The notes below the pieces were generated by a model that was not told where the DNA came from, did no database searches, and saw only the letters and a list, made by a program, of their open reading frames with translations. A program made the translations under genes and the position numbers. 64,000 nt of DNA from Candidatus Nomurabacteria bacterium. Lineage in GTDB: Bacteria > Patescibacteriota > Minisyncoccia > Phycocordibacterales > UBA9973. Positions 15,526 to 44,821 of the stretch are shown in pieces (positions within the stretch are counted from its first letter, which is position 1; each line of letters starts with the position of its first letter). The DNA lies in NCBI GenBank assembly GCA_026396015.1, contig JAPLXP010000002.1, forward strand, positions 5,502 through 69,501. Direction: 5' to 3'.

Positions 15526-16042
15526 CTCTCAAAATAACAGTATCATAAAACTTTTCTGAAATTGTTCCGTTATTCAATGTTAATTCGATTTTCACTGCCT
15601 CTCCTGCACCAGTAGATATGCGCCTAAAAATCAGATTAGTAGCAGTAACATTTTGATTCAATAAATCATCCAATAAAGAATTATTTTCATAAATATTCAA
15701 AGATCCACTTAAGACAGAAAATTTTACAACACGAGCACTGCCACCTGAATCCTTGCCATTAAGAGTGAGCACTCCTGGATTCGATCCAAAGGTACTACTT
15801 GCAATATCTATACTGTTCGCCTGACGTATTTCTCGTGTGATACGTTCCATTCCATTGTTTCCAGATTCAAGTAAATTACGAGTTACACGAGTCTTATTAA
15901 AGGAAGAATTTACAACCATTGATGAAGCTATTATGGCAACAGAAACAATACCAAGTATAGCAACGTATACTAAAACTTCGATAATTGTGAATCCTTGGTT
16001 TAACTTATTTTTTATATTTTTTTGAGATGTGAATTTATGCAT
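15515..16042 (-). CDS. type IV prepilin-like (minor pilin/pseudopilin) protein
   Basis: Class III signal peptide QG|FTIIEVLV with Glu at +5. Confidence 0.75.
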   Translation of the reverse strand: MHKFTSQKNIKNKLNQGFTIIEVLVYVAILGIVSVAIIASSMVVNSSFNKTRVTRNLLESGNNGMERITREIRQANSIDIASSTFGSNPGVLTLNGKDSGGSARVVKFSVLSGSLNIYENNSLLDDLLNQNVTATNLIFRRISTGAGEAVKIELTLNNGTISEKFYDTVILRGGY

Positions 16043-16043
16043 A

Positions 16044-16541
16044 TTAATTAAAAATATTTGAAATATAAAAAGGTACAGACTTTGATATTGTATTACCGTT
16101 TGAAGTCCATGATGTCGTAACTGTTACTTTTTTTGTACCAGCATCGAGTGTACCAGAACTTGCAATATCATCATTAGAATCACGGTAAACAGGAGAGAAT
16201 ACTATGACACGAGTGAATGAATCAACTTTTGACGGAGTAGCAGAAAGAGACCATACATTGGTCGTGTTATTAAAAGCCAAATAATAATTAGTGTTATCAG
16301 TAACGCCAGAAATATTTGTCCAGTTTGTGTCTCTTAAGGATTTTACTGCTTCTGATCCTTCTTCAAGGAGAAAACTGGCTTGAACTTCATCTAAGGCTTG
16401 ATTAGATAAAATTATACCCTTATTTGTTGAAGACATTAGAATTACTGCCAATACTCCCAATACAGAAGTGGCAATCAACACTTCAATCAAAGAAAATCCT
16501 TGAATATATTTTATATAATTTTTTTTATTTAATTTAGACAT
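16044..16541 (-). CDS. type IV prepilin-like protein
   Basis: Class III signal peptide QG|FSLIEVLI with Glu at +5. Confidence 0.75.
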   Translation of the reverse strand: MSKLNKKNYIKYIQGFSLIEVLIATSVLGVLAVILMSSTNKGIILSNQALDEVQASFLLEEGSEAVKSLRDTNWTNISGVTDNTNYYLAFNNTTNVWSLSATPSKVDSFTRVIVFSPVYRDSNDDIASSGTLDAGTKKVTVTTSWTSNGNTISKSVPFYISNIFN

Positions 16542-16542
16542 T

Positions 16543-17022
16543 TTAATTTGAACTCACAATACCTGTTTTTCTAATTGTGATAGTTTTTGTCTTACTGTGA
16601 TCACTATTTAATTGTACAACAATCGTACCATTATCAACAGTATCTCCAGTTAGTCGAGTAAAATTTACATCAGATACTCCCCCATTTAAATTAATACCTC
16701 CAGTTGCAGAAAGAGACACCTTGCTATCAAAAATAATCTCAGTATTTGAACTATTTGGCTCACTAAACGTACCATCAGTAAACAGAATAACTCTACCACT
16801 TTCAATATGAACACTATAGTAATGTGAATTCTGAGAGGCCAAAGTCTGAGACCTAGCTTGATTCAGTAGTGTAACAATATCTTCTGCAGTATTTTTTAAA
16901 ATCTGCTGATCTCTGAATGTATACAAGGATGGCATTACTACTGCCAAAATCAAAGAAATAATTGCTATAACAATCAATAATTCTAAAAGTGTAAAAGCTC
17001 GATTTTTAATTAAATTCTTCAT
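16543..17022 (-). CDS. type IV prepilin-like protein (GspH/FimT-like)
   Basis: Class III signal peptide RA|FTLLELLIV with Glu at +5. Confidence 0.75.
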   Translation of the reverse strand: MKNLIKNRAFTLLELLIVIAIISLILAVVMPSLYTFRDQQILKNTAEDIVTLLNQARSQTLASQNSHYYSVHIESGRVILFTDGTFSEPNSSNTEIIFDSKVSLSATGGINLNGGVSDVNFTRLTGDTVDNGTIVVQLNSDHSKTKTITIRKTGIVSSN

Positions 17023-17023
17023 A

Positions 17024-18256
17024 TTATTTTATATTTTCCAATACTGAGTACATTGGTGTGAGCATAGACACTGCAAAGAATCCAACAGCTGCACCAATAA
17101 ATATCATCAGAACTGGCTCTATAATAGTAGACAAGTCTTTTGTTTTTGCATCAACTTCACCTTCATAAAATGAAGCAATATCTACAAGCATGGCGGCTAG
17201 ATTACCCGTTTCCTCTCCGACTTCCATCATTTCCCCCATCATGATAGGATACAGGTCAATTTTTTCCTTGAACACAGAAGAGAGCGGTAGACCTTTTTCT
17301 AGGTCAAAGATAGCTTTCTCTATTGTTTTCTTGTATTGATAATTTTGCAGTACATCTTTTGTAATATCCAAAGCTCTAGACATGTTTACTCCAGAAGATA
17401 ATAGTGACGATAAAGTACGAGCAGTTCTTGCCGAATTTGTCTCCTTGATCAAATTACTGATTACTGGCAATTTCAAAACTATATAATCTAACATTATTTT
17501 AGTTTTTTCAATTTTACCCAAAAAATAAAATACAGCAACAATACCTGCAAAGAAAAGAACCACAAGTCCTATGTTATGACTAACTGTATCTGACAACCAG
17601 ATTATAAAACGAGTAGAAGCAGGGAGACTCGCTCCCACATCCTTGAAAGTCTTTGTAAGAGTTGGAACTACGAACATCAGCATCAATACACCAATTAGGA
17701 TCATCGCACTAAATATCACACCTGGGTACATGAGTGCTCCTTTTATTTTTTTATTTAAATCATAAGATTTTTGAAGACTTGCACCAACCTCCCCTAGAGA
17801 CTTTGGTAGTGAACCAGATTCTTCTCCTGCACCAATCATCGCCACAAAAAGAGTAGAAAAAACATTTGGGAATTTTTTCATACCATCTGAAAGAGAGCTA
17901 CCTTTACTAATACTCTCAGATAATGACTTGAGAATATCTTTATAGGTAACGTTAGTCGATTGCTTTTCTAAAATAATTAATGATCGAGACAAAGATAAAC
18001 CAGCCTGAAGCATTCCTGATAAATTACGAGTGAAAATTATCTTTTCTCGCAATTTGATAGACCCAAAACTAAGATGGGACATTTTAGCTAAAAAAGTCTG
18101 CTCATCTATGGGCTTCAAAAATAAAGGCGTCTCACCTAATTCATGAACTTGTTTTGCTGCAGCAAATTTATCTACAGCATCAATAATGCCATTATGAATC
18201 TCGCCTGTTTTTGTTTGTGAAGTGTATTTAAATTTCATATTATTCTGAAACAACAC
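17024..18256 (-). CDS. pilC: type IV pilus assembly platform protein PilC (GspF family)
   Basis: Two GspF-type repeats, three TM helices, about 410 aa; directly downstream of the pilB ATPase. Confidence 0.9.
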   Translation of the reverse strand: MLFQNNMKFKYTSQTKTGEIHNGIIDAVDKFAAAKQVHELGETPLFLKPIDEQTFLAKMSHLSFGSIKLREKIIFTRNLSGMLQAGLSLSRSLIILEKQSTNVTYKDILKSLSESISKGSSLSDGMKKFPNVFSTLFVAMIGAGEESGSLPKSLGEVGASLQKSYDLNKKIKGALMYPGVIFSAMILIGVLMLMFVVPTLTKTFKDVGASLPASTRFIIWLSDTVSHNIGLVVLFFAGIVAVFYFLGKIEKTKIMLDYIVLKLPVISNLIKETNSARTARTLSSLLSSGVNMSRALDITKDVLQNYQYKKTIEKAIFDLEKGLPLSSVFKEKIDLYPIMMGEMMEVGEETGNLAAMLVDIASFYEGEVDAKTKDLSTIIEPVLMIFIGAAVGFFAVSMLTPMYSVLENIK

Positions 18257-20000
18257 GCAAAACTTCTTCAGCAGATGTTATCCCTTGCACTGCAAAGAAA
18301 ATTCCATCTTCAAGCATAGTCATCATACCCTCACTCTTGGCCTGATTCTCTATTTCATCAGCAGATGAGCCTTTAATAATTAATTCTTTAATAGTATTTG
18401 TTATTTTAAAAACTTCATGTATTCCAATACGTCCTTTATACCCTTCCTTATTATCATCTGTTATTACTGGTTTATAAAAAGGTATAGTGTCCCAATTGTC
18501 TTTCTCTCCAACGATATTTTCCTTTTTTAGCCTTGCAAGCATTTTATCCATATCTATTTTTTTTGCCATAGCCTGCTTTTCAACACCATTCATAAAATAT
18601 TTTTCTTTATTTTCAGTTAGCTTACGAACAAGACGCTGTGCAATAACAGTTTTTACAGTAGACACTATCAAAAATGGCTCCACACCCATATCAATAATAC
18701 GTGGTATCGTACCTGCAGCAGAGTTTGTATGGATAGTAGACAATACAAGGTGACCAGTCAGTGCTGCATTGACACCCAATGATGCAGTCTCACCGTCACG
18801 AATCTCCCCTACCATTATAATGTCTGGATCCTGACGGAGTAATGTACGTAGGCCGTTTGCAAAAGTAAGACCAATCTCGGATTTTGTCTGAGTCTGATTT
18901 ATTCTTGGCATTTGATATTCGATAGGGTCTTCAATAGTTGAAATATTTACATCAGGTGTATTTAAAATATCGAGCATTGTATACAATGTTGTAGTCTTAC
19001 CAGATCCAGTCGGACCAGCACAGAGGAGCATTCCTGTTCTCTGCTTCATGCCATCGTGAATCATCTCAAGTGCATCACCATGAAAACCTAACCCCTCTAG
19101 AGTAAAACCTTTTGAACTTTCCTTCAAGATACGAATAACTGTTTTCTCTCCAAAATATGTCGGCAACGTAGACACACGAAAAGAAACACGACCTTGTTCG
19201 TTTGCAATTTTAAATCTACCATCTTGAGGAAGACGCTTTTCGTCAAGTTTCAAATTTGATAATACTTTTATGCGTGCAGTCACACCAGAAGACATGTCTT
19301 TGGGTAGGACCATAGCGTCATGTAAAATACCGTCGATTCGATAGCGGATTATCAACGAATCTTCACATGGTTCAATATGCACATCAGAAGCACCCTGAAA
19401 TATTGCATGAGAAATTAGAGTATCCACAATCTTCACGATAGGTAGATCCTCAACTATTTCTCTTAATTCTTTTTCAGTTTTCTCTTCTCCATCTTTTCCT
19501 TCACTATTTATATTTTTTACAGCATTTCTAGTTTCTTTTTTGATGATATCTTCAAAATCGGCCTGCAGACTTTTTTTATACTGAGCTAGTGCTAATTTTA
19601 GAGATTCACTATCTGTTAGGCGTGGCAGAATTCTGAGCCCAATTTTCTTTTTAATAAAATCAATAACAGGAAGATTGGCTACATCCAGCATCGCGACTTC
19701 TAGTGTGTCATCACTTTTTTTATAAGCGATAATATTACTATTACGAGCAACCGGCTCTGGAATCAGAGACAAGACACTAGGATCAATTTTTTCGCCTTTT
19801 AAAGATACAAATGGAATACCCAATGCTTGCGCTTGCATATTTATCCAATCTTTTTCTGTAAGTTTTCCGAGAGATACCAATACATCCCCTACTGGCTGAT
19901 TCTTTTCCGCGGCTTTTTTCAAAGCAAATGCAAAATCAGTCTTTGTCACAAGACCTGACTCACGAATAAGATCCAATATCTTGGCATCATTGATATACAT
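18240..20000 (-). CDS. pilB: type IV pilus assembly ATPase PilB (GspE family)
   Basis: Walker A GPTGSGKTT, Asp box, His box; GspE-type N-terminal domain. Confidence 0.9.
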   Translation of the reverse strand: MYINDAKILDLIRESGLVTKTDFAFALKKAAEKNQPVGDVLVSLGKLTEKDWINMQAQALGIPFVSLKGEKIDPSVLSLIPEPVARNSNIIAYKKSDDTLEVAMLDVANLPVIDFIKKKIGLRILPRLTDSESLKLALAQYKKSLQADFEDIIKKETRNAVKNINSEGKDGEEKTEKELREIVEDLPIVKIVDTLISHAIFQGASDVHIEPCEDSLIIRYRIDGILHDAMVLPKDMSSGVTARIKVLSNLKLDEKRLPQDGRFKIANEQGRVSFRVSTLPTYFGEKTVIRILKESSKGFTLEGLGFHGDALEMIHDGMKQRTGMLLCAGPTGSGKTTTLYTMLDILNTPDVNISTIEDPIEYQMPRINQTQTKSEIGLTFANGLRTLLRQDPDIIMVGEIRDGETASLGVNAALTGHLVLSTIHTNSAAGTIPRIIDMGVEPFLIVSTVKTVIAQRLVRKLTENKEKYFMNGVEKQAMAKKIDMDKMLARLKKENIVGEKDNWDTIPFYKPVITDDNKEGYKGRIGIHEVFKITNTIKELIIKGSSADEIENQAKSEGMMTMLEDGIFFAVQGITSAEEVLRVVSE

Positions 20001-20035: not shown

Positions 20036-20074
20036 AAAAAACAGCTTCGATATTATTCGAAGCTGTTTTTTATT
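20036..20074. terminator. bidirectional terminator after pilB
   Basis: ACAGCTTCGA-ATATTAT-TCGAAGCTGT hairpin flanked by A-runs and T-runs. Confidence 0.6.
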
Positions 20075-20498
20075 TTAAATGCCCTGGATGATAACCTGCG
20101 TCAGCAATATATTCTTCTTTTTTTTCACCTTCTTCTGGAGTCATCAATTCATCTTTTTTGGAAAGCGTCTTTTCTAGCCAGATTTTATACAATTCACTCG
20201 TATAGACAGATGCAGTCGTCACAAACATTGGTACATCATAAGAATGAAGTCCTTCCAAAAATCCAATCAACTTTTCTGATAGTTCTTTTTGTGTTGTGAT
20301 CATGAGCATATATTGATCTACATCTTCGAGTACCCCATTCCATGGATACACTGATTCAATTGCCCAAAAATCTCCACATACTGCGAGATTGTTTTCTACC
20401 GCTGAACGAGCGAGACTCCTAGCCTCATCTGCATCACTACATGTCGTATATACAAAAACTGTATCTTTTATATTAGGATCTATTTTATCTGTAATCAT
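20070..20498 (-). CDS. CutA1 divalent-cation-tolerance family protein
   Basis: VFVYTTCSD..EA..LA...VE..LAVCG ... SVY.W.G ... HSYDVP matches the CutA pattern. Start set at MITDK. Confidence 0.65.
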   Translation of the reverse strand: MITDKIDPNIKDTVFVYTTCSDADEARSLARSAVENNLAVCGDFWAIESVYPWNGVLEDVDQYMLMITTQKELSEKLIGFLEGLHSYDVPMFVTTASVYTSELYKIWLEKTLSKKDELMTPEEGEKKEEYIADAGYHPGHLK

Positions 20499-20514
20499 AT
20501 ATAAATTATAACTC

Positions 20515-21741
20515 TTAATCTTTTTTATACAATAAAATAAAAAACACACCAGATAATATTATAGTCAAAGCGGCTATCAACAATGGAGTAGTCGGTGCGA
20601 GTGCAGCAGCGATGAACCCTGAGAGTATTGCTGGTATAGCTTGGGCTAGTGCCTGCACAGAAGAGCTAATACCCATGATTTCCCCTCTTTGATCAGCGGG
20701 TGCAGATTTTGAAAGCAGACTATTGATATTTGCCATTGTGAGTCCTGTACACACAGAGAAAAATGGAGGGATCAAAAGTAGCTGCCAAGTGTGATTTGGA
20801 AGAAAGTATGCCAATACCATGAACCCTGCACCAGATAGTGAGTATTTCAATATCTGCGGCTCAGTAAATTTCTTTGAAAATGCACGAGTTAGCACTGCTT
20901 GAGTAAACACACTCCAGATACCTACATAGGCAAAGAAGTCTCCGATATTACCTTGAGTAAAAGAAAATTTATTGATCAGGAATACACCAAAGAAAGTAGT
21001 GAAAAATGTAAAACCTCCAAAGAATAAAAAGTTTGTAAAGAATAATGCACTCATACCCTTCATCTGCATCGCACGCTTTATGTTTGATATTGATTTACCC
21101 CAAGTCAAATCTTCTGTTCGTAAATTTTTATTTGTCTCAGGTACTAGGAACAATACAGACAACATATTCACAAAAGCCAAGAATGCAGCAAAATAAAATG
21201 GTACAGCAGCAGTAAACCAAGACACGACTGATGGATCAGACAATTTACCTCCTATATATGGTCCAAATATAAAACCAAGACCAAATGCTGCACCTAGCAT
21301 TCCAAAATTCTTTGCTCTATTCTCTGGAGTAGATACATCCCCTATCATAGCCTGAGCGATAGAGATATTTCCACCAGTGATACCATCGAAAAATCTTGAA
21401 GCAAATAGCAATGGAATATTTTTTGTGATTATAGCTATGGCAAAGAGCACGTATGATATTGCAGTACCTAGTAGCGCTATGCTGAGTATCTTCCTTCTTC
21501 CGTATTTGTCAGACAACTGCCCTAGTATAGGTGTAGCTATGAACTGACCGATAGGATAAACAGCTATCAGCAATCCGAGCAGCATATATCCCTGATTCAG
21601 AGTGTAGCCAAATGGCAACATATAATCAGTAGATAGAGGGTTTGCAAATAATTGTGGTATGACTGGGATTAAAATACCGACCCCCAATAGATCGATAAAT
21701 ACGGTTAGAAAAATTGTAATTAGTATTTTATTTTTGAACAT
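20515..21741 (-). CDS. MFS transporter
   Basis: 12-TM profile with the MFS loop 2-3 signature ([11 protein letters not shown]). Confidence 0.85.
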
Positions 21742-21804
21742 TGTTCCACTGTACCACAAATATCGCCAATTCAAAATTGACGATACGATACAGGAGTTAC
21801 TATA

Positions 21805-24800
21805 TTATTCTACAGATGATGTGATAGTTTCTATTGTTTGTTCTGTTGATGGTATTATTGGAATTTCTGCTGGGGATACGACTCCTATTGCTGTTGTATT
21901 TGTAGGGGGGGCTACTTCTGTTACGGGACTTAAATTACTTGATCCCCCTGCCTGCAAAAGTAGTGCTTTGAATTGTTCTTTTGTAGCACAGACATCATCC
22001 ACACAAATTTTATCATCTATATGCAATACTCCTATTGTCATTTCTTTTGCAAAAGTAATTTGATCTTTCAAAAAAGAAACAATAAGTGTTCCCACAGAAT
22101 TTGATTTAGTTAAATCTAAAGATACAACATTTGATAATTTTAAATCTAAATCTTGTATTGATTTCACAAGCAGTGGAGTAAGTCTACCGTAGTCTACCAT
22201 CCATGGGGTAGATTCTGGTCCAAGAGGTACTAGACCATCGTCTCCATTTGTAGATACAGCGTATGGATACACTGTATCTAATTGCTGAGCAATAAAACCT
22301 TGTGTGGAAACATGACTTGAATCATTAATAAAATCAAAATCTACAACCTTTATTTTCAACAAATCATTGAGTCCTTTTGTAGTCAAAGGATTATTTAAAT
22401 CAAAATTTTCCTTCAAGCGAGCATCTGATGTTGTATTGTATGCAATAGTAGTAGCAGCATTTTGAGAAATACTTCCAATAACAGTGGCGTCTGGTCTCTG
22501 GAAGGTAATCATTTCTGATGAAGCTACTCCTGTATTATTACCTGCTAAAACAAGTAGTCCGTTGTTTTGAGTTACACCACCAAGAGTATTCGCGATTCTT
22601 GCTGTATGTGTACCTGCAGCTGGAGTATTGGTGACATGCAATCTATTTAAAATACTTCCACCATTTGTACCTATTCCTACATTTGCATTCGCATCAAAAT
22701 TCATAACATTAGTAGCACTACCAGATAATTGGAAGGCCAACTCAGCAGAATTACCTTTTACGGTATTAACTTTAACGGTAGACCCCGTAATACTACTAAC
22801 TGCCCAAAAATTAGTAGCATGAACATCACCAGAAACATTTAATTTATAACTGGGATCATAAAGACCTATTCCAACATTGCCATTAAAATAGGAAGGAGCT
22901 GTTGTCGCATTATAAAAAGCAAAACTTGTACCTGTCACAGTCGGCATTCCTGAAACATACACTCCATAACTGTTTACCACAGTACCACTTCCTCCGTTAT
23001 TAGAATTTGATACGTATAATCCATATTGATTGGTCACAGGGTTTATTGTCATATTTCTTGTTCTCAACTGAACACCATAAAGATTATCAACTGTTATGTT
23101 TTCACCGGTATTTCCAGCATCAGCAAAAATACTTGAACCAATAGCAGAACCCGTAGTACTATTGGTGGTTTTTTGATATTGCATAAAAAAGCCAACATTA
23201 GATGTATTTAAACCTGTATCTTGTGAATTAAATTGAATAAACCTACTACTCAATGCCCCAGACCGAACTGAATTTACATAGAGAGTAGAAGCAGTATTAT
23301 TATTATCCACATTATTTAAATACATATTACCTGCTGAATCAACTTTTAATTTACTTACACCATATGTCTGCATATTAAATAAATCCCCCACATAACCATT
23401 TGACTCATTTATTGCAAATGATGTACCAGAAGATGATCCGACAAAATGACCTGAGGATGTCCCATCAAACAGTCCACTACCGAGTGATACAGTTCCATAA
23501 CTACTAGAACTAGAAGAAGCATTAATATGTAATTCAGAAACAGGATCAGTAGAACCTAAGCCAATATGACCAAGTCTATCAATAGTCATGGCTGTATTAT
23601 TAATACCAGAACCATACGTATTTGTGGTACCAAATTGTAATTTACTTCCACCACCAGTTTGAATTGAAGCAATTCTAGATGAAGCGCTAGTTTCGTTTAC
23701 ACCACCCTGAAAATCAATTGTTGTGTAATTATTTGTACCAGAGATATTTCTAAGAAGAAGTGTACCAAAACCTGTCCCAGTAAAAGACGTGCGAGGTGTA
23801 CTCTCTTGTATTTGGAATTTTGTAACTGGTGTTGTAGTTCCAGCCCCGATATTCCCATTTCCTAAAACAGAAAATATTTTTCCTCCAACTAAAGAATATG
23901 GGGAGTAACTATTTGAATTAGTCCATGTGGTATCTGTTGTGAGACTCGTACTTGAATTAATTGCTGAAATTGTATGAGTCTCTCCATTTACTGTTATTGT
24001 GTCCCCTACTTTAAATGTATTAAAAAACAATGTGCCAGTATTACTTCCTGAGTTGCCTGTGACAGTCGCACTCCCTGAAACAGTATTTACAGTTCCTGGG
24101 CCAGTAGTACTTTGGCCAACTTGAAAGTTTGTATCTGGAGAAGAAGTCCCCACACCAACAACTTTATTTTGAGATACAGTCAAAATTGAATTTACATCAA
24201 GCAATCCAGCTGGACTATTGGTTCCAATACCAACATTTCCACTCACAATCATTCCGTTTAAAGGAGAAGCATTCACTCCGGCATAGCTACCAACAGACAT
24301 ACCACCATTTATATCAAATTTGGAAAGTGGACTTATTCCGACTCCAACTTTTCCTAATAACAAAGAATCTCCACTTGAATTCAAGGCAGAACCTACAACA
24401 GGACTAAATGTAGCAGTATTGTATATAAGTGTCCCAACTGCTTCATATCCAGCAGTATTAAGATGAATATTGTCCCCTGAATCATATTCAATTTTCAATG
24501 CATTAGGATTTTCAGAATCAACAAGAGCGGAGTAAGCATCTACTCGATAGTCAACATTGCGGGCGCTATTTTTAATCCAAGTATTTACATTATCAACAAC
24601 ACCTTGCCTTTGTATTGTCCAATAAGTACTTCCTTTCCAAGGGGTTATAGTAACAGCAATCACTTTCAATCCTGCAGCAGAAGCAGAGTCATACATAGCT
24701 TGCAAATTTTCCTCTATAATAGAAGCTGTAACATTACCTGAAGCATCATTTACCCCACCCCAAACAATCACATACTCAGCATCAGAATGAGAAGTAACAT

Positions 24801-25320
24801 CACTATTAAAACGTGCCAGCATTTGTCCTGTACCCTGACCAGGAATACCTTTATTATTTTCAGCCCAAGAAGAACCAAGTAAGGAAATTAATTTATTTTC
24901 ATAAACTCCACCGCTAGCAATATTACTATTACTGTAAGTCAAACTATCCCCCATCGAATATATCTGATGAGGTGAATTAAATTTATTTGAGGCTACAATA
25001 GATAATTTATTAGTTGGGCTATTTGTTCCTATACCCAATCTTCCATTAGTCGAATCCCAATACAACGAAGATGCCCATGCTGGATTGGTGCCATTGGTAT
25101 AGAAGAGTTTTCCTGCATTTCCTGTCTGATCAGGGAGAAGAGAAACATAACAAGTCGCATCGCTTGGAGGACAACTTGGATTTGTGATATGGTCAGCAGG
25201 ATAATAAACAGCGTAAACTTTTATTGCAGTGTAATTTGTGAATGAAAATACTGCCAATACAATAAATATACGAGTTAAAACATATTTGAATTTTTTCATT
25301 GACACAGTTTGTTTACTCAT
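21805..25320 (-). CDS. giant secreted surface protein: N-terminal SGNH/GDSL esterase domain, long Gly/Ser/Thr-rich region (possibly beta-helix), C-terminal intramolecular-chaperone (Peptidase_S74-type) domain
   Basis: Signal peptide; GDSL block MGDSLTYS; catalytic DNIHLN (DxxH). C-terminus TSDARLKENF...GFIAQQLDTVYPYAV matches the autoproteolytic chaperone domain of phage tail-spike/endosialidase proteins. Confidence 0.7.
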   Translation of the reverse strand: MSKQTVSMKKFKYVLTRIFIVLAVFSFTNYTAIKVYAVYYPADHITNPSCPPSDATCYVSLLPDQTGNAGKLFYTNGTNPAWASSLYWDSTNGRLGIGTNSPTNKLSIVASNKFNSPHQIYSMGDSLTYSNSNIASGGVYENKLISLLGSSWAENNKGIPGQGTGQMLARFNSDVTSHSDAEYVIVWGGVNDASGNVTASIIEENLQAMYDSASAAGLKVIAVTITPWKGSTYWTIQRQGVVDNVNTWIKNSARNVDYRVDAYSALVDSENPNALKIEYDSGDNIHLNTAGYEAVGTLIYNTATFSPVVGSALNSSGDSLLLGKVGVGISPLSKFDINGGMSVGSYAGVNASPLNGMIVSGNVGIGTNSPAGLLDVNSILTVSQNKVVGVGTSSPDTNFQVGQSTTGPGTVNTVSGSATVTGNSGSNTGTLFFNTFKVGDTITVNGETHTISAINSSTSLTTDTTWTNSNSYSPYSLVGGKIFSVLGNGNIGAGTTTPVTKFQIQESTPRTSFTGTGFGTLLLRNISGTNNYTTIDFQGGVNETSASSRIASIQTGGGSKLQFGTTNTYGSGINNTAMTIDRLGHIGLGSTDPVSELHINASSSSSSYGTVSLGSGLFDGTSSGHFVGSSSGTSFAINESNGYVGDLFNMQTYGVSKLKVDSAGNMYLNNVDNNNTASTLYVNSVRSGALSSRFIQFNSQDTGLNTSNVGFFMQYQKTTNSTTGSAIGSSIFADAGNTGENITVDNLYGVQLRTRNMTINPVTNQYGLYVSNSNNGGSGTVVNSYGVYVSGMPTVTGTSFAFYNATTAPSYFNGNVGIGLYDPSYKLNVSGDVHATNFWAVSSITGSTVKVNTVKGNSAELAFQLSGSATNVMNFDANANVGIGTNGGSILNRLHVTNTPAAGTHTARIANTLGGVTQNNGLLVLAGNNTGVASSEMITFQRPDATVIGSISQNAATTIAYNTTSDARLKENFDLNNPLTTKGLNDLLKIKVVDFDFINDSSHVSTQGFIAQQLDTVYPYAVSTNGDDGLVPLGPESTPWMVDYGRLTPLLVKSIQDLDLKLSNVVSLDLTKSNSVGTLIVSFLKDQITFAKEMTIGVLHIDDKICVDDVCATKEQFKALLLQAGGSSNLSPVTEVAPPTNTTAIGVVSPAEIPIIPSTEQTIETITSSVE

Positions 25321-26304: not shown

Positions 26305-27228
26305 ATGCAAATAGGAACAATGATTTTAACAGTTTTAGGTCTTTGTCTTTTTGAGATAATCTCAAGTATAGACAATGCAGTTATCAATGCCGAAGTATTA
26401 GGGACAATGGGTAAAACGGGTCGTAGATGGTTTTTGACTTGGGGATTTTTCTTTGCCGTATTCGTAGTGCGAGGACTACTCCCATGGATTATAGTTTGGG
26501 CTACAGTGCCGTCTCTCGGACCAATAGGAGCATTTACTGCGACATTCTCCAATGACCCAAGTATTCACAATGCAATCGAGTCTTCATCACCAATACTACT
26601 GATGGGTGGTGGAATATTCTTAATATTTCTATTCTTTCACTGGCTATTCCTCGAACCAAAAAATTTCGGATTACGAGGAGAAAGATTCTTTCAAAAAAAT
26701 GGTGTTTGGTTCTTTGCTGTAGTCTCTATCATCCTATCTATCGTAGTATGGAACACATTAAAGATAAATAGTATGCTAGCTTTTGGAGCAATCATTGGAT
26801 CTACTGCATTTTTTATCACACATGGATTCAAAGAAAACGCTGAAAGAAGTGAGAAGAAATTGCTTTCAGGTGATAACAAAATGAGTGATCTATCAAAGAT
26901 TTTATATCTAGAAATCATAGATACTACATTCTCTATCGATGGAGTGCTCGGTGCATTTGCCTTTACGCTGTCTATACCACTGATTATCATTGGTAATGGA
27001 TTGGGTGCTTTTGTCCTCAGGCGTCTAACAATGCACAATATAGATCGCATAAAAATGTATGCGTACCTGAAGAATGGAGCGATGTATTCTATTGGAGCAC
27101 TCGGTATAATCATGATCGCTGATGGATTCGGTATTCATATTCCAGCATACATCTCCCCTATTATTACTTTTGTTATCATCGGATATTTCTTCTGGAAATC
27201 AAAAATAGCTCTAAATACTAAAATATAA
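26305..27228 (+). CDS. TerC/DUF475-family integral membrane protein
   Basis: EIISSIDNAV motif in TM1, polytopic; an alternative start lies at 26266. Confidence 0.5.
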   Translation: MQIGTMILTVLGLCLFEIISSIDNAVINAEVLGTMGKTGRRWFLTWGFFFAVFVVRGLLPWIIVWATVPSLGPIGAFTATFSNDPSIHNAIESSSPILLMGGGIFLIFLFFHWLFLEPKNFGLRGERFFQKNGVWFFAVVSIILSIVVWNTLKINSMLAFGAIIGSTAFFITHGFKENAERSEKKLLSGDNKMSDLSKILYLEIIDTTFSIDGVLGAFAFTLSIPLIIIGNGLGAFVLRRLTMHNIDRIKMYAYLKNGAMYSIGALGIIMIADGFGIHIPAYISPIITFVIIGYFFWKSKIALNTKI

Positions 27229-27232
27229 AATA

Positions 27233-27270
27233 AAAATATCCCCGGATAAAACCGGGGATATTTTTATTTG
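27233..27270. terminator. bidirectional terminator
   Basis: ATATCCCCGG-ATAAAA-CCGGGGATAT hairpin followed by a T-run. Confidence 0.6.
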
Positions 27271-27274
27271 TATA

Positions 27275-27820
27275 TTATTTCCTAGACATGTATTTATAAT
27301 TTGAAAGAATCAAAATCATAAATACACCCATAGAGAATGCCATCACAGGCATAGTCACATATCCAAATTCATATATATATCGAATTGCACATGACACTTC
27401 AGTAGTACTACCTGTAGAACAGGCCAGATTTGCAGCACCACCATTCTCTACATATATATGGAACAATGAAATCATAGTCCCCACAAAAGCTAATACTAGA
27501 GAATAATCTACAATCATCTTTTCCTTTTTATAAAGTTCCATACCAAATAAAATCACTTGTGGATAAATAAATATTCTCTGCATCCAACACAGTTCACAAG
27601 GAGGAAATCCTACAACACTCGAATAGAACAATGACAAAGCTGTAGCACCCAATGCAGTAAGAAATCCAATAATGAAAGTATAATCATGCAGGAATTTCAA
27701 AAATGCATTGTCTCTTTTTCTAAAAAAAAGAAAATTAGCAACTATAATAAAACAAAATATTTGGAGTGCGATAGTACCTAGGGATAAAATGTAGTTTAAA
27801 TTTTCTACGTATGCAGGCAT
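27275..27820 (-). CDS. disulfide bond formation protein DsbB/BdbC family
   Basis: Four TM helices with a CxxC pair in the first periplasmic loop (PCELCWMQR). Confidence 0.7.
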   Translation of the reverse strand: MPAYVENLNYILSLGTIALQIFCFIIVANFLFFRKRDNAFLKFLHDYTFIIGFLTALGATALSLFYSSVVGFPPCELCWMQRIFIYPQVILFGMELYKKEKMIVDYSLVLAFVGTMISLFHIYVENGGAANLACSTGSTTEVSCAIRYIYEFGYVTMPVMAFSMGVFMILILSNYKYMSRK

Positions 27821-27821
27821 A

Positions 27822-28406
27822 TTACTGAGGAAGTGTAAATTTAATCTGCTCTGCTAAAAAGTTAAGAGGAATTTCTCCTGTAGCAAAAGAACTATTGTCG
27901 AACTTCCATGTACCAGCGGTTACTATCGGATCCTTTACACTTTTAATTGAAAATTTGTAATCTGAAAAAATCCAAGTACGAGCATATGCAGAGTGAACAT
28001 TGGCACAAATATCGGGTTCACCTTTTATTGATTCTCCTGTTGGACTCGCAGCACACACAGTAGGATTCTTGTCAGAAGAAGTAAGTGATATACCATCTTT
28101 AAATCTCCATGATGGGAAACTTTCAATTTTGTTATCTAGACAGATTTGAGTTGTCTTTCTGTCTGCAGTTGAACATTCAACATATGGCAAATACTGTTTT
28201 GCACTACCAAATTCTGCTTTTTGAGCCTGACAATGCGGGCACCAGAATGCACCGAAGAACTCTGCTCCATTACTCTTTAAAGCTTTTGCAAAGTCGTCAT
28301 ATTTACTAGGACCAGCAGCCCTATTAGCAAGAAAACCCAATCCAACAACCAGAATAATAATACCAACAATAGAAACGATAAATATAGCCTGTTTTGATTT
28401 CATCAT
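27822..28406 (-). CDS. membrane-anchored thioredoxin-fold thiol-disulfide oxidoreductase (DsbA/BdbD-like)
   Basis: N-terminal TM anchor and WCPHC active site; immediately upstream of the DsbB-like gene. Confidence 0.7.
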   Translation of the reverse strand: MMKSKQAIFIVSIVGIIILVVGLGFLANRAAGPSKYDDFAKALKSNGAEFFGAFWCPHCQAQKAEFGSAKQYLPYVECSTADRKTTQICLDNKIESFPSWRFKDGISLTSSDKNPTVCAASPTGESIKGEPDICANVHSAYARTWIFSDYKFSIKSVKDPIVTAGTWKFDNSSFATGEIPLNFLAEQIKFTLPQ

Positions 28407-28428: not shown

Positions 28429-30552
28429 CTAATTAAAAATAGATACGAAACTCTTAAAAGCATGAGCTATACCACTGAATATACCACCCATAAACTTGTA
28501 AATCTTGTCTGAAACATCAGAGTTAGCAGCACTAGCAGATAGATTTACCTTGCTTGATTGATCTGATGATTTTACTGCATCTTTGTTTTGGATTGTTATT
28601 GTTTTATTTTGTACAACCTGATTAGTCTTTTGAATTTTAGCAATTTCCTTTGTTTTTATTGGAAGAATTTCTTTGTTTGTTATTTCAGGAATTTTTTCAA
28701 CTAAATCATCTTTTTTAACGGTGACTTCCTCTTTTTTAATTTCCTTTTTTATCTCAATTGAGCCGCCGCCAGAAGCAACAATCGGTGTAATATATTTACC
28801 AAAATTATTTAAACTATTACTAAAACTCTTGTGCATTATTGCTGGTATGGCGTAGCTAGTAGACCAAATACGATTAGATATATCGGAATTTATATCCTCC
28901 ATTCCCCCATCTATTTGTTGATTTTTTGCTAAATAATTTTCTGCTCGTGTCACATTCAAGGACAAAGAATTATTTAGACTCATTGCCTGAAGAGCCCAGC
29001 TAGTAGAAAAATTATTACCAAAACCACCGTTTGATTGATTTTGATTTATTATCAAATAATTCTCAGCTCTATTAATCGCATCAGAATTACCTCCATAAAA
29101 TCTTAAAGCTTGAAGGCCAGCAGCAGTCATATCAGCACTATCACTCCAAGATCCATTTGGCAGTTGATGTCCGACAAGATACGATATATCTTTTGATATA
29201 AAATCATCTTCTTGTGTATATCCAGATTTTCCGAGAATTATCAATCCAAAAATATCATCATTGATTAAATTTGCGTCCCCAATCTGAGTACCATCAAAAG
29301 ATTTTACTATTTTATCTATATAGTTAATACTTGTACCATTATAAGGACTAATTCCTAGCGCTGATAGTGCCATAGCATGACGCTCATTGTCTGTAATAAC
29401 ATCTGAGTTGAAAGCATTATTCTGTAAATAATTTTTTAATTTCACAACAAATGGTGCATTGGAAATACCAGCAGAAATAGCAACCCAATCGGTATAGAGA
29501 GTATCACCAAACGAGCCATCTGGATTCTGTTTGCTCAACAAAAAATTATTTGCATTTGATATTGAAAAAGTTGGAACTGGAATTCCACCTCCTCCACCTG
29601 AAGATACAGGCAGTATAGTGATATCCAAAGAATATGGAACATACAGTGTTTTAGATCCGGTAGCTTTAAATGCGCCATCTTCATTCATAATAAGAGAACA
29701 TGTTCCATCTGATACAGTAGAACAAGATTGACCTCCAATTGAGATTACAACATCCGAAGATGGTGTCCAAATCATATTAAAATTTGAATCATAAGTACTC
29801 TTTTCCTCAGCAGTGAATACAATAGTATCACCAATAGTACCAGAATATTTATCTGCAGAAATTTTCAATGGATAAGAATTGTAAGTTAAAACAATTTGCT
29901 CTTCATCCTGTAATATGTGTTGATTTAGTCCAGTAGAACCAGAATTTAAATCTTCATATTTTATTTGATAAAACCAGCCCCAGTATTTTGAATAATCAGA
30001 AGCAGTTGAATAAGTACCAAGCTCGTCCATCCAACCACTTGGTGCATAATCCCAAGTCCAAGTATTTGATAACCCAGATTGTTCTACAGCACATTTACCA
30101 TTGATTGTTCGAATACCACTATTTGGTGATTCTTCGCAAGCATTCACAGTCTCAGTGCCGTCAAACAATACTGCATCCCCCGCATATGCCTTCAGTACTA
30201 TTGTCACAGGAGTCGGGTCTACTATCACTGTCCTCTTTACCTCAACGGCAGAATTTAATGAAAAATCTTTCACATTATAGGAAACAGAATAATGGCCGAC
30301 AGTATTTGTATCTATACTACTAATCGAAATAATATTTGAGGAAATATCACCATCAACATCATCGAGGGCTGTCGCACCTGAATCAACATATACATCACCT
30401 TTATTTATATAAACAATTGAATCCCCTGATAGTGAAATGATTGGGGCCGTAGTATCTAATGGCGGATTAGAAGCTGGCTCTTCTGCCTGAGCAATAGATC
30501 CGATAAAAATAAAAGCTAGTATCAATATTGAGTTTAAAAATTTGTTTTTCAT
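28429..30552 (-). CDS. large secreted protein: signal peptide, Ig-like (DUF5011-type) domain, beta-rich region, then a prenyltransferase/squalene-cyclase-type alpha/alpha-toroid repeat domain
   Basis: Signal peptide MKNKFLNSILILAFIFIGSIAQA. DVDGDISSNII...GHYSVSYNVKD Ig-like block. Four repeats of the Q..DG[SG][FW] type (KQNPDGSFGD, HQLPNGSWSD, NQNQSNGGFGN, NQQIDGGMED). Confidence 0.6.
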   Translation of the reverse strand: MKNKFLNSILILAFIFIGSIAQAEEPASNPPLDTTAPIISLSGDSIVYINKGDVYVDSGATALDDVDGDISSNIISISSIDTNTVGHYSVSYNVKDFSLNSAVEVKRTVIVDPTPVTIVLKAYAGDAVLFDGTETVNACEESPNSGIRTINGKCAVEQSGLSNTWTWDYAPSGWMDELGTYSTASDYSKYWGWFYQIKYEDLNSGSTGLNQHILQDEEQIVLTYNSYPLKISADKYSGTIGDTIVFTAEEKSTYDSNFNMIWTPSSDVVISIGGQSCSTVSDGTCSLIMNEDGAFKATGSKTLYVPYSLDITILPVSSGGGGGIPVPTFSISNANNFLLSKQNPDGSFGDTLYTDWVAISAGISNAPFVVKLKNYLQNNAFNSDVITDNERHAMALSALGISPYNGTSINYIDKIVKSFDGTQIGDANLINDDIFGLIILGKSGYTQEDDFISKDISYLVGHQLPNGSWSDSADMTAAGLQALRFYGGNSDAINRAENYLIINQNQSNGGFGNNFSTSWALQAMSLNNSLSLNVTRAENYLAKNQQIDGGMEDINSDISNRIWSTSYAIPAIMHKSFSNSLNNFGKYITPIVASGGGSIEIKKEIKKEEVTVKKDDLVEKIPEITNKEILPIKTKEIAKIQKTNQVVQNKTITIQNKDAVKSSDQSSKVNLSASAANSDVSDKIYKFMGGIFSGIAHAFKSFVSIFN

Positions 30553-30556
30553 ATAA

Positions 30557-31027
30557 TTAAAATGATTCTTGCTTCCAGGTGACGACATCGCCTGATTTAA
30601 TTTTATTTTTGGACACTCCCATACTTGCCTTTTTACCATCCAGATAATAGAGCCAATATTTCCCCGGTGTACCAGGTACTCCATTGATACTATCCACAAA
30701 ATTCCCCAAGCTACTGTACTCCTTTGAATGAAAAGAAAATCCCGAATTTTTATCATTGTTTAGCTTTTCCATGGCATTGTATACTGTACTACCTGGATCA
30801 ACCATTATTTGATATGAATTGTCCCCTACTTCTATCTTTACACTCTCTGTATTTTTATCAACTTTATCTATACTTTTTTTCTCTTCAGTCGGTTTTACGA
30901 TTTCTTTTTTAATAACATTTTTTTGAATGATACTTTTGTTTTTTGTCTTTGCAAATGCAACGTTCGAAAAAGACAAAATCATTACCAAAAAAATGAAAAC
31001 TATTTTATTTATTTTTTTATATGTCAT
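30557..31027 (-). CDS. small secreted protein with a DUF4430-like (transcobalamin C-terminal beta-domain-like) module
   Basis: Signal peptide. C-terminal GKYWLYYLDGKKASMGVSKNKIKSGDVVTW matches the W.Y.VNG...G...LKDGD.V.W hallmark from memory; domain assignment not computed. Confidence 0.5.
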   Translation of the reverse strand: MTYKKINKIVFIFLVMILSFSNVAFAKTKNKSIIQKNVIKKEIVKPTEEKKSIDKVDKNTESVKIEVGDNSYQIMVDPGSTVYNAMEKLNNDKNSGFSFHSKEYSSLGNFVDSINGVPGTPGKYWLYYLDGKKASMGVSKNKIKSGDVVTWKQESF

Positions 31028-31257
31028 TTTTATGCGGAATTAATCCTGTTAAATAATAAAAACTCCTGCGCGAGCAGAAGTTTTTATATCCTTTTTAACA
31101 AAGAGATTTCCTGCTCGGGTAAACAATTTATATATTAAGATCGGACTTGTCTCTTGCGAGCTTTACCGTTGCGGCACAGTGGAGGAATGTATCCGTCTAT
31201 TTACATAGATTAGGATGAACCTCACTTCCAAACATATAAACTTAAATTTTAAATGAA
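31028..31257 (-). promoter_or_regulatory. long structured leader ending in an intrinsic terminator, directly upstream of the DUF4430 gene; possibly riboswitch-like
   Basis: Minus-strand transcript carries blocks resembling the cobalamin-riboswitch core (CCGCAACGGTAAAG; CCCGAGCAGGAAATC), then a CTTCTGC-TCGC-GCAGGAG hairpin plus U-run about 30 nt before the start codon. No canonical B12 box seen. Confidence 0.3.
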
Positions 31258-31779
31258 TTACACTCGGACAATTTCAGGGATACTTACCAATATATCACTT
31301 TCCTTCATCACCCATTTTTCAATCATTGGTGAGAGAACTATAGCAAAGGATACATTGGAAAGCAAATGAATAGCAGTGAATGGAATCTGCCCAAGAACTG
31401 CAGACATGAATGGCTGGCCAAAGAATATCGGACCCATAGTCAAACCTGTAGCAGCATCAAATGCGATAGTCGCTACGAATGCGTATTTTGCATAATTCTT
31501 CCAGCCAGTACGATTCTTGAAATAGAGACTAGCCCCAATACCTACCAATCCATAGGATAGACCTGCGATGAGTGTCCACACACCGAATCCTGCAGTCACA
31601 GAATCATATAGTACGATAGACAAAAAGCCAAATAGGAATGCATACACACTTCCGTATTTACGTGATAGTGGCATTTGCATAGCCATAATAGGCTCCAGAT
31701 TTGGAGCCCTAAATGGTACTAGTCGGACTAGTAGTCCTACTATAAACAGAGATATAATTTTGATCGGATTTTTCTTCAT
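31258..31779 (-). CDS. small five-TM membrane protein, possibly an ECF-type substrate-capture (S-component-like) vitamin transporter
   Basis: 173 aa with five predicted TM helices and no other domains; directly downstream of nrdJ and upstream of the DUF4430 module. Confidence 0.3.
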   Translation of the reverse strand: MKKNPIKIISLFIVGLLVRLVPFRAPNLEPIMAMQMPLSRKYGSVYAFLFGFLSIVLYDSVTAGFGVWTLIAGLSYGLVGIGASLYFKNRTGWKNYAKYAFVATIAFDAATGLTMGPIFFGQPFMSAVLGQIPFTAIHLLSNVSFAIVLSPMIEKWVMKESDILVSIPEIVRV

Positions 31780-31792
31780 ACGTTTTTATAAC

Positions 31793-34162: not shown

Positions 34163-34265
34163 ATTTTTTCTAAAATTAATGATAAATTGCACTTTTAATA
34201 CTTTGGACTATTATTATACCGCCGTCAAAATTGCATGCCAATACCCAAAACAACCAAAAAAGCAC
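34141..34265. repeat. copy A of a 125-bp direct repeat (nrdJ 5' region including the first six codons)
   Basis: About 85 percent identical overall to 35141-35266, with a 48-nt perfect core ATACTTTGGACTATTATTATACCGCCGTCAAAATTGCATGCCAATACC. Confidence 0.85.
34204..34232 (-). promoter_or_regulatory. sigma70-type promoter of nrdJ (copy A)
   Basis: On the minus strand: -35 TTGGCA, 17-nt spacer, -10 TATAAT, about 40 nt upstream of the nrdJ ATG. Confidence 0.55.
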
Positions 34266-44164: not shown

Positions 44165-44821
44165 TTAAATTGCTGTAATAAATCCAAAACCGCGACTGAA
44201 TTTAAAATCATAAAAATCGCTCAAGATATATCTGATGATGCAAATATCCCTGTGATACACATAAGCCATTTTTTCTTTTTCAAAAATACGATCTGCATGA
44301 GATATAAAAGCCAATTCTTTCAATAAGAATTGAATACCTATTTCTACTGCTTCCCCACTCGGAGCCAATACCCCATTAGACAACAGAACTTCGATAGTTG
44401 TTGTCCTCACTGCATTCATAAAATTCTCATCTGATTGATATGCATTCCTTAAATCAAATAGTGCCTCTGTATAATAAATATTGGAATTGAAATTCTTCCA
44501 ACGCAACACCCTAACAGAAGTGGCGACATCAAGAGATTCAATAATCTGATTGCATTTGTTTTCTAAAGCATTGGATTTCTTTTTCGATTTCCTTTCTGCT
44601 TCTTTTTCTGTGTACCCTAGTGCCATCATCGTATGGACTGCTGGCTCGTCGGGTATCATAATATAAACAGAATTCGACCTCTTTGAGGCCCAAGATATTA
44701 GCCTGATTAAATTCTCATCTTTAAAGTAGCTGTTGTTGATACTTACACCGATAATGAGTGCTGTGTCCCTATTGGCTAGGGCTTCTTCGTTCAGAGACGA
44801 ATCTTTGATTTGTATTTCCAT
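44165..44821 (-). CDS. tRNA-dependent cyclodipeptide synthase (CDPS), NYH subfamily
   Basis: ALIIGVSINNSYF (compare AlbC ALIGISAGNSYF and YvmC VLVGISPFNSRF) with conserved Ser and Asn. YTEKEAERKSKK segment parallels YvmC. LLKELAF (the catalytic-Glu region Y..AE.P.F). VYHRD (Tyr-His of the NYH type). Length 218 aa, monocistronic. Confidence 0.8.
   Translation of the reverse strand: MEIQIKDSSLNEEALANRDTALIIGVSINNSYFKDENLIRLISWASKRSNSVYIMIPDEPAVHTMMALGYTEKEAERKSKKKSNALENKCNQIIESLDVATSVRVLRWKNFNSNIYYTEALFDLRNAYQSDENFMNAVRTTTIEVLLSNGVLAPSGEAVEIGIQFLLKELAFISHADRIFEKEKMAYVYHRDICIIRYILSDFYDFKFSRGFGFITAI

Follow-up and report, generated by a model that had tools for sequence, protein, structure and literature searches.

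Can a chromosomal gene whose product is built from modules of phage tail spikes belong to the cell that carries it and, if so, on what would the esterase within such a protein act? This question is raised by an open reading frame (ORF) in a 64,000-nucleotide stretch of DNA, here called the window, from contig JAPLXP010000002.1 of a Candidatus Nomurabacteria metagenome-assembled genome (MAG; assembly GCA_026396015.1; NCBI lineage Patescibacteria group, Parcubacteria group, Candidatus Nomuraibacteriota). The encoded protein, here called the fibre, combines a predicted signal peptide and a short N-terminal module (N-module) with an SGNH (GDSL) esterase cassette of phage affinity, a long shaft and an intramolecular chaperone (ICA) domain of the Peptidase_S74 family. 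The catalytic residues of both enzymatic domains are present, the gene lies among cellular genes, and a family of paralogs occurs in other genomes. This fibre architecture is well supported, and it is of a type already described in Bdellovibrio as mosaic adhesive trimers (MATs) rather than a new kind of system.

Domain content of the fibre

The 1171-residue ORF and all of the peptides quoted in a sequence-only reading of the window were present, the ORF lying where that reading had placed it, and the coding strand is minus. Thus, MGDSLTYS occupies residues 123–130, DNIHLN residues 283–288, SDARLKENF residues 965–973 and GFIAQQLDTVYPYAV residues 1008–1022. The corresponding GenBank entry, MCX6755753.1, starts at M8 (nucleotide 25299) and therefore comprises 1164 rather than 1171 residues. 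An identical protein with the same neighbours was found on an independent Logan assembly (SRR20698640, locus L001); given this copy and the GenBank record, the ORF is neither an assembly artefact nor a chance reading frame. The SGNH domain proposed near the N-terminus and the S74 chaperone proposed at the C-terminus were both borne out by Pfam, the former by matches to Lipase_GDSL_2 (PF13472, residues 123–294, E = 1.1e-20, 75.3 bits against a cut-off of 32.9) and Lipase_GDSL (38.1 bits, cut-off 23.6) and the latter by a match to Peptidase_S74 (PF13884, residues 965–1022, E = 3.3e-8, 34.1 bits, cut-off 22). These matches are not due to chance. Among PHROGs, 'lipase' was matched at residues 122–297 and 'tail fiber protein' at residues 750–1061 and 884–1056, while no NCBIfam model matched the protein. 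The GenBank name, 'MAG: GDSL-type esterase/lipase family protein [Candidatus Nomurabacteria bacterium]', conceals both the fibre and the S74 domain, and since the S74/tail-fibre nature of the protein is invisible in its annotation, proteins of this kind are easily missed by annotation-based surveys.

The limits of the individual regions are given in Table 1. In the signal peptide, as read by inspection, the n-region is K/R-rich, the hydrophobic core reads IFIVLAVFSF and a cleavage-type site is present at V-Y-A37, of which A37 was invariant in an alignment of five sequences and at least 90% conserved in a larger alignment. The N-module consists of the pattern YYPxDxITNPSC(50)xPxDxxC(57)YVSLLPDQTGNxGKLxxTNGTNPxW and, after it, the first of seven capping loops ("VGIGTxxPxxKLxV") that were located by a motif scan. 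This first loop occupies residues 95–108 and the other six lie in the shaft, at residues 325, 363, 388, 491, 586 and 816, the pattern within the fibre being (V/I/L)G(I/V/A/L)G-x2-3-P-x3-(L/F)-x-(V/I). The low-complexity, Gly/Ser/Thr/Asn-rich region noted in the earlier reading corresponds to the shaft, in which these four residues make up 51% of 654 positions. A trimeric beta-helix or meander is the presumed structure of the shaft, which, when scaled from the MATs Bd3182 (135 residues, 60 Å) and Bd2133 (approximately 370 residues, 142–150 Å), would be approximately 26–29 nm long. Only 4 homologs detected by BLAST spanned at least half of it.

The Ser-Lys dyad of the ICA domain, S965/K970, lies within SDARLK, which fits S-D-x-x-x-K, and was invariant in alignments of 13 and 37 sequences. 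A conserved cysteine hairpin (C1106/C1111) also lies within this domain, and C-terminal tails similar to that of the fibre were present in paralogs. The sequence-only reading had S74 cleavage occur after the serine, which is one residue too far: Bd3182 self-cleaves at its catalytic S782 to leave a mature chain that ends at A781 (Caulton et al., 2024; PMC10769870), and the predicted scissile bond of the fibre is, by analogy, T964|S965.

AlphaFold2 (AF2) monomer models were built for residues 800–1171 and 101–320. The former had a mean pLDDT of 66, with values of 75–95 over the ICA domain (residues ~930–1095), and its best Foldseek match was the ICA domain of MyRF (7dc3; probability 1.0, TM 0.56 on target), followed by Bd2133, Bd3182, Bd1334, the tail tip of phage T5 and the endoNF chaperone (3gw6). 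As modelled, the C-terminal region has the ICA fold, i.e., a beta segment and long helices after a triple-beta stalk. A trimeric autotransporter adhesin of the YadA type was considered and rejected, since Pfam matched no YadA anchor or head in the fibre, which ends in S74 instead. PF05658 head repeats do occur in some distant homologs.

Table 1. Coordinates within the window of the fibre gene, its regions and its upstream neighbour.
Feature	Coordinates	Strand	Basis or comment
Whole gene	21805..25320	-	1171 residues and stop; NCBI start M8, 1164 residues
Signal peptide (predicted), residues 1–37	25210..25320	-	Inspection of sequence and conservation
Family-specific N-module, residues 38–115	24976..25209	-	Conserved in paralogs
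SGNH/GDSL acetyl-esterase cassette, residues 116–310	24391..24975	-	Pfam, PDB sequence matches, AF2 and Foldseek
Fibre shaft, residues 311–964	22429..24390	-	Motif scan, composition, PHROG and MAT matches
ICA/Peptidase_S74 domain, residues 965–~1124	21949..22428	-	Pfam, alignments, AF2 and Foldseek
Pro/Thr/Ser-rich disordered tail, residues 1125–1171	21808..21948	-	pLDDT <50, composition
Exported GW-repeat protein, 307 residues	25325..26248	-	Upstream neighbour of fibre

Affinities of the SGNH cassette

SGNH blocks I, II, III and V were all present in the cassette, as GDS126, G161, GGVN191D and D283-N-I-H286, and of 10 aligned relatives, 9 retained S126, N191 and H286; the remaining one, P0018, is not an SGNH sequence and was misaligned. 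The closest Foldseek matches of the AF2 model of residues 101–320 (pLDDT 82, pTM 0.81) were polyvinyl alcohol (PVA) esterase 9KQZ and the acetyl-xylan esterase PbeAcXE (7TOH), both at approximately 4e-13, followed by Axe2 and sialate O-acetylesterases, with TesA and PAF-acetylhydrolase ranked lower. Sequence matches of the cassette in the PDB were the acetyl-xylan esterases 7TOG and 7TOH. By analogy with these enzymes, an O-acetylated polysaccharide is a plausible substrate.

Among viral models, the best matches of the SGNH model were phage esterases, minor tail proteins, tail fibres and tail spikes. The cassette, flanks included, was 42–52% identical to three proteins without a signal peptide from phage contigs, one encoded between tape-measure/tail genes and a GH108 endolysin gene with an integrase nearby (P0007), one in the context of capsid and GH108 genes (P0012) and one in the context of terminase and portal genes (P0019). 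The domain order of P0007, SGNH followed by End_tail_spike and S74, is that of the Nomurabacteria fibre, and the spacing between capping loop and GDS was exactly 28 residues in the fibre, P0002 and P0007. This fixed spacing, together with the extension of similarity into the flanks, argues that the cassette moved as a unit. Use of the SGNH domain alone as the query of a protein search gave only 3 matches, the word index being limiting.

Cellular context and relatives of the fibre

The assignment of the window was confirmed by its EF-G, which was 100% identical to MCX6755765.1 from a Candidatus Nomurabacteria MAG and is encoded on the same 81-kb contig as the fibre. Pfam was run on each ORF of 100 residues or more in 1–39.3 kb of the window and on ten of the largest in 41.5–54.4 kb, and every one of them was cellular. 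In agreement with the sequence-only reading, which had reported no flanking phage genes, these ORFs included none for phage structure, lysis or integration, and the Logan copy showed the same cellular neighbours. The further proposal of that reading, a cellular fibre made of phage tail-spike modules rather than a prophage product, held up as well, on the evidence of the above-threshold S74 match and the cellular surroundings, together with the signal peptide, chromosomal paralogs and the distribution of the N-module, which was not found in IMG/VR viral contigs. When 50,697 phage records were compared with the fibre, none covered more than 25% of the protein; annotated phage tail fibres were 29–38% identical to it over residues 814–1100.

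Module shuffling was evident when 120 homologs were mapped on six regions of the fibre, some having only the N-module in common with it, some only SGNH and many only the shaft preceding S74 and S74 itself. The N-module was 46–60% identical in about a dozen proteins without SGNH (including P0004, P0006, P0008, P0013, P0022 and P0029). No paralog of the fibre was found inside the window. A scan of 185,579 GTDB species genomes with a five-sequence alignment of the N-module detected it in only two, with four loci in a Candidatus Paceibacterota MAG and four more in a MAG from a pond, so that each carries at least four paralogs. All seven paralog frames reconstructed from these genomes begin with the same signal peptide and N-module, and the five that are complete all end in a Pfam-matched S74 domain and a similar tail. 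The middles of the seven paralogs differ, and SGNH was present in none.

One paralog was found in the gene order MurJ, fibre, LepA, DivIC, and the same arrangement surrounds P0009. The closest full architectural match, P0009 has a signal peptide, Cys loop, SGNH, shaft and S74, and its gene is in a cellular context beside that of a second S74 protein. Another homolog, P0003, adjoins PheS/PheT. The fibre paralogs and these relatives are stable chromosomal genes. The order TPR protein, MurJ, S74 fibre, LepA, DivIC was kept in two Paceibacteria-type contigs, L010 (4532–7264 and 10001–12745) and L002 (7732–14031), and in L010 a second fibre, which bears SGNH, is encoded just past DivIC and a glutaredoxin.

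The N-module contains two generic sub-motifs, LPxQxGNxGKxLxTNGxxxW and the capping loop, with matches in 6794 50%-identity clusters at E < 1e-3. Fibres of this general type are thus very widespread in metagenomes, but few proteins have the N-module in full. A scan of metagenome contigs yielded only 4 short fragments. Up to 31 copies of the unit formed by LPxQxGNxGKxLxTNG..W and the capping loop were counted in a group of giant proteins of 2400–7185 residues (P0244–P0257); the label 'giant' that had been given to the fibre is thus misplaced, as related fibre proteins reach 7185 residues.

Comparison with known fibres

Caulton et al. (2024; PMC10769870) described 21 MAT fibres in Bdellovibrio bacteriovorus. 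These proteins are of approximately 1000 residues and have a signal peptide, a conserved, beta-rich N-terminal domain of approximately 130 residues and trimeric beta-helix shafts, with a capping-loop consensus of V-G-G/N-pi-x-x-P-x-x-x-L; 13 of the 21 end in S74 with SDxxxK and the others in different tips, and MATs were located on the predator surface and in the invasion vesicle (PMC10769870). A family profile made from the C-terminal third of the fibre and 36 homologs matched the MAT structures Bd2133 (1.4e-30), Bd1334 (1.6e-15), Bd3182 (1.8e-12) and Bd2439 (7.7e-11), and also matched the phage fibres 8JOV and 6F45, the MyRF ICA domain and the phi29 neck appendage.

The Nomurabacteria fibre resembles MATs (Bd3182, PDB 8OJN/8ONB/8ONC) in that it is cellular, has a predicted signal peptide and a length of approximately 1000 residues, begins with a conserved N-module, albeit one of its own kind, continues in a long, presumably trimeric beta-helix shaft in which capping loops recur, and has S74 with SDxxxK as its C-terminal domain. 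Both belong to multigene families with swapped modules, for the fibre on the strength of paralogs counted in two Paceibacteria genomes. Bdellovibrio lives on other bacteria, to which the bearer of the fibre may be likened insofar as its episymbiosis is assumed from its phylum. The two differ in phylum, the fibre being from Patescibacteria, and in the capping loop (VGIGTxxPxxKL), which in the fibre mostly exceeds the MAT consensus by one residue. They also differ in the SGNH cassette, which does not appear among the MAT domains given in the paper and its Table S3; likewise, the list of MATs from other lifestyles includes neither Patescibacteria nor an esterase (PMC10769870).

Where tested, SGNH receptor-binding proteins (RBPs) of phages are polysaccharide deacetylases, as exemplified by G7C gp63.1, RBPs of Klebsiella prophages and Acinetobacter phage fibres (PMC13123978, PMC11058221), and the Nomurabacteria fibre has in common with them an SGNH cassette within a fibre that is trimeric or presumed to be so. 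The likeness is closest to the metagenomic phage fibre P0007, in which the order capping loop, 28 residues, GDS...SGNH, beta-helix, S74 is the same and the cassette is 47–50% identical. In contrast with the Nomurabacteria fibre, which is chromosomal, predicted to be exported and has a much longer shaft, phage SGNH fibres lack a signal peptide, begin with a virion-attachment region and are encoded among tail genes. In the K1F/K1E endosialidase endoNF (3GW6; PF13884/MEROPS S74), the order anchor, catalytic domain, triple-beta stalk, ICA is alike, as are the Ser-Lys dyad in SDxxxK and the ICA fold, which was recovered by Foldseek; endoNF differs in having a sialidase beta-propeller instead of an SGNH esterase and in its low identity, and the Nomurabacteria fibre is cellular. 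MyRF (7DC3), to which the C-terminal model is structurally most similar, is also a cellular protein with a co-opted phage ICA domain, but it is a eukaryotic membrane-tethered transcription factor of unrelated biology, without fibre shaft or esterase.

The concept of a cellular fibre built from phage hardware is less novel than the sequence-only reading took it to be, because Bdellovibrio MATs are already cellular S74 fibres (PMC10769870) and SGNH-S74 tail fibres exist in phages. What is new here is a MAT-like, presumably S74-matured cellular fibre with a phage-type SGNH cassette in the candidate phyla radiation (CPR); S74 cellular fibres and SGNH fibres as such have been published. Within the collection of papers searched, none connected the endosialidase chaperone or S74 with Patescibacteria (CPR).

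Proposed function and alternatives

The function that we favour, with a probability of roughly 55%, is that of a Sec-exported, homotrimeric, S74-trimmed surface fibre that binds a partner cell and de-O-acetylates its surface polysaccharide. Thus, the signal peptide would carry the unfolded chain across the membrane. Patescibacteria are presumably monoderm, and the fibre would assemble outside a single membrane, not in the periplasm; a built-in chaperone would be useful there, since no cytoplasmic chaperone is present outside the cell. Three ICA/S74 domains would associate and nucleate the interdigitated triple-beta shaft, after which the S965/K970 dyad would cut T964|S965, release the chaperone and Pro-rich tail (approximately 207 residues) and expose the distal tip. 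The disulfide-containing N-module would stay cell-proximal and hold the fibre on the cell, while the SGNH esterase, probably taken over whole from the tail-fibre genes of phages, would remove O-acetyl groups from the surface polysaccharide of the bound partner (host) cell. A role in the de-O-acetylation of host glycans is plausible by analogy, and the lineage-specific multigene family with its swapped middles suggests a repertoire of surface-recognition specificities.

Several points weigh against this proposal. Export, trimerization, self-cleavage, anchoring of the fibre by the N-module, the esterase substrate and host recognition are all inferred, with esterase activity assigned by analogy, and the episymbiotic lifestyle of the organism is assumed from its phylum. 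The N-module, of 78 residues with a Cys pair, is not demonstrably the MAT N-terminal domain of approximately 130 residues. The single fibre sequence matched a MAT, Bd3182, only at E = 0.0085 (residues 573–623), the strong matches having come from the family profile. The model of residues 800–1171 is a monomer with a mean pLDDT of 66 and its Foldseek E-values were weak (best 0.02), as may be expected of a monomer model of an intertwined trimer, although S74 domains, MAT fibres and phage fibres still made up most of the list of matches. The SGNH enzyme is not essential to the function of the family, since none of the seven paralogs in other genomes carries it. Finally, if the N-terminus is cell-proximal, the esterase lies approximately 26–29 nm from the distal tip, a position from which long polysaccharides, or the envelope of the organism itself, would be no less fitting a target than a host receptor.

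This last point is also the start of the alternative that survives best, which we regard as possible but rather unlikely, namely that the same exported trimeric esterase fibre acts without host recognition, either on the envelope of the cell that makes it or on polymers of the environment or of biofilms. This could mean de-O-acetylation of its own peptidoglycan or wall glycan (Ape-like), or deacetylation of exopolysaccharide for attachment, nutrients or acetate scavenging. The placement of SGNH beside the presumably cell-proximal N-module fits such a role, as do the nature of the nearest solved relatives, which are bulk-polymer (acetyl-xylan and polyvinyl alcohol) esterases, and the MFS transporter gene immediately downstream. 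On the other hand, the closest relatives of the cassette, flanks included, are phage tail fibres that recognize the surface of another cell, a multigene family with swapped middles fits recognition repertoires such as that of MATs rather than housekeeping wall enzymes, and paralogs without SGNH retain the fibre.

A second alternative, which seems improbable, is that SGNH is a lipase or (lyso)phospholipase delivered by the fibre to the host membrane for lipid harvest. CPR bacteria are regarded as incapable of synthesizing lipids. Pfam, JGI and NCBI names for such domains, 'GDSL lipase' or 'lysophospholipase L1-like', are in line with this idea, and TesA and PAF-acetylhydrolase were among the lower-ranked fold matches of the domain, but the top matches in both sequence and fold were polymer acetyl-esterases, tests of such phage-fibre relatives have shown them to be deacetylases, and no lid or hydrophobic acyl-binding feature was evident, though no dedicated look was taken. 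The weakest alternative, an ordinary tail fibre of a prophage, tailocin or phage remnant in the chromosome, was rejected on genomic context as largely refuted and very improbable: the S74, SGNH and PHROG 'tail fiber' matches, the identity with phage tail fibres over residues 814–1100 and the SGNH...S74 order of P0007 would be accounted for, but not the lack of any phage gene among the scanned ORFs or on Logan contig L001, the conservation across paralogs of a signal peptide (which virion proteins lack) and of extracytoplasmic Cys pairs, the housekeeping positions of paralogs (MurJ-fibre-LepA) or the results of the IMG/VR and phage-record searches.

Possible implications for host recognition

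How ultrasmall CPR bacteria (Patescibacteria) recognize and attach to hosts is poorly known, and the only mechanism studied in the literature searched was that of Saccharibacteria type IV pili. A Nomurabacteria-type organism is now seen to encode a fibre like a phage RBP, and its relatives to encode a small family of such fibres. If these fibres mediate host contact, as favoured above, the mosaic adhesive trimer idea would extend from Gram-negative predators to CPR, modules shared with phages of the host would serve as sequence handles for host prediction, and a receptor-modifying enzyme would have been borrowed from phages by a cellular symbiont. A broader proposal, offered tentatively and with the odds against it, is that Paceibacteria/Nomurabacteria-type CPR own a lineage-specific counterpart of MATs, i.e., a chromosomal multigene repertoire of Sec-exported, S74-matured trimeric fibres that swaps modules with phage RBPs, including 'receptor-editing' SGNH cassettes, and sets host attachment. 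If this were true, host range could be read from fibre sequences in comparison with RBPs of phages that infect the same hosts. Interest in these ideas is tempered by the fact that the organism is uncultured, that every functional statement is deduced, and that cellular S74 fibres and SGNH fibres had each been published before.

Neighbouring genes and other features of the window

The neighbours named in the sequence-only reading, an MFS transporter, CutA and an exported repeat protein, agreed in identity and position with those found. The MFS transporter gene (20515–21774) is directly downstream of the fibre gene, with CutA (20070–20549) beyond it and then, at lower coordinates, a type IV pilus-type operon, beyond which lie TIM, PGK and HIT. 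Around the fibre gene itself, no DNA repeats, phase-variation or cassette features of note were found, and the count of promoter-like sites near it was not above chance expectation.

The exported repeat protein is the upstream neighbour of the fibre (Table 1). It contains the GW repeats GWMWGSATGWISYNCSN, GYAWGPQTGWVNF and GYAWAQSFGYISFNCSN, has a C-terminal half rich in Lys, Pro and Thr, and matched nothing in Pfam and NCBIfam. Its gene ends 4 nt ahead of the fibre start codon with no terminator between, and the two genes are possibly co-transcribed. In two other Paceibacteria genomes (L002 and L005), homologs of the GW-repeat protein (47–49% identity) were encoded upstream of fibre paralogs at a distance of 8–9 kb, with LeuRS, TPR and MurJ genes between; because these housekeeping genes intervene, the association of GW-repeat protein and fibre was provisionally attributed to general synteny rather than to a dedicated partnership.

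The pilus operon, which resembles those of type IV pili and type II secretion systems (T2SS), occupies 13744–20000 (minus strand) and starts two genes downstream of the fibre. It encodes PilB (T2SSE and MshEN), PilC (T2SSF), three N-methyl pseudopilins (one GspH-like) and a 593-residue 'choice-of-anchor R'/DUF5649-repeat protein. A linkage between fibre and pilus was considered, but no PilB or PilC homolog was found within approximately 10 kb of fibre paralogs at eight other loci, and the proximity was treated as coincidental.

Beyond the GW-repeat gene, at higher coordinates, are genes for TerC/DUF475, DsbB, a thioredoxin-like protein, an Ig-like surface protein and DUF4430, and further upstream those for an ECF S component, class II ribonucleotide reductase, NUDIX and EF-G. 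The DsbB and thioredoxin-like gene pair (27275–28406, minus strand) is approximately 2 kb from the fibre, of which the extracytoplasmic-looking Cys pairs C50/C57 and C1106/C1111 would need an oxidation system of the DsbB/thioredoxin type. Between the convergent DsbB and TerC/DUF475 genes, a perfect palindrome at 27228–27269 (18-bp stem, 6-nt loop and T-runs on both strands) looks like a bidirectional intrinsic terminator. The genes at 28429–34192 (minus strand) encode a 775-residue surface protein (Ig-like, terpenoid-cyclase/TED-like, with a weak Cobalamin_bind match), DUF4430 and the ECF-type S component; they adjoin the gene for the B12-dependent class II ribonucleotide reductase and form a possible vitamin B12 capture cluster.

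Scanned ORFs in the rest of the window included MacB/FtsX/HlyD, a P-type ATPase, ComEC, RNase H, RecJ, PIF1 helicase, GT2, PAP2 and DedA, and five tRNAs were also present. A cyclodipeptide synthase (44165–44821, minus strand; PF16715, E = 1.7e-31) was likewise encoded in this reduced CPR genome.

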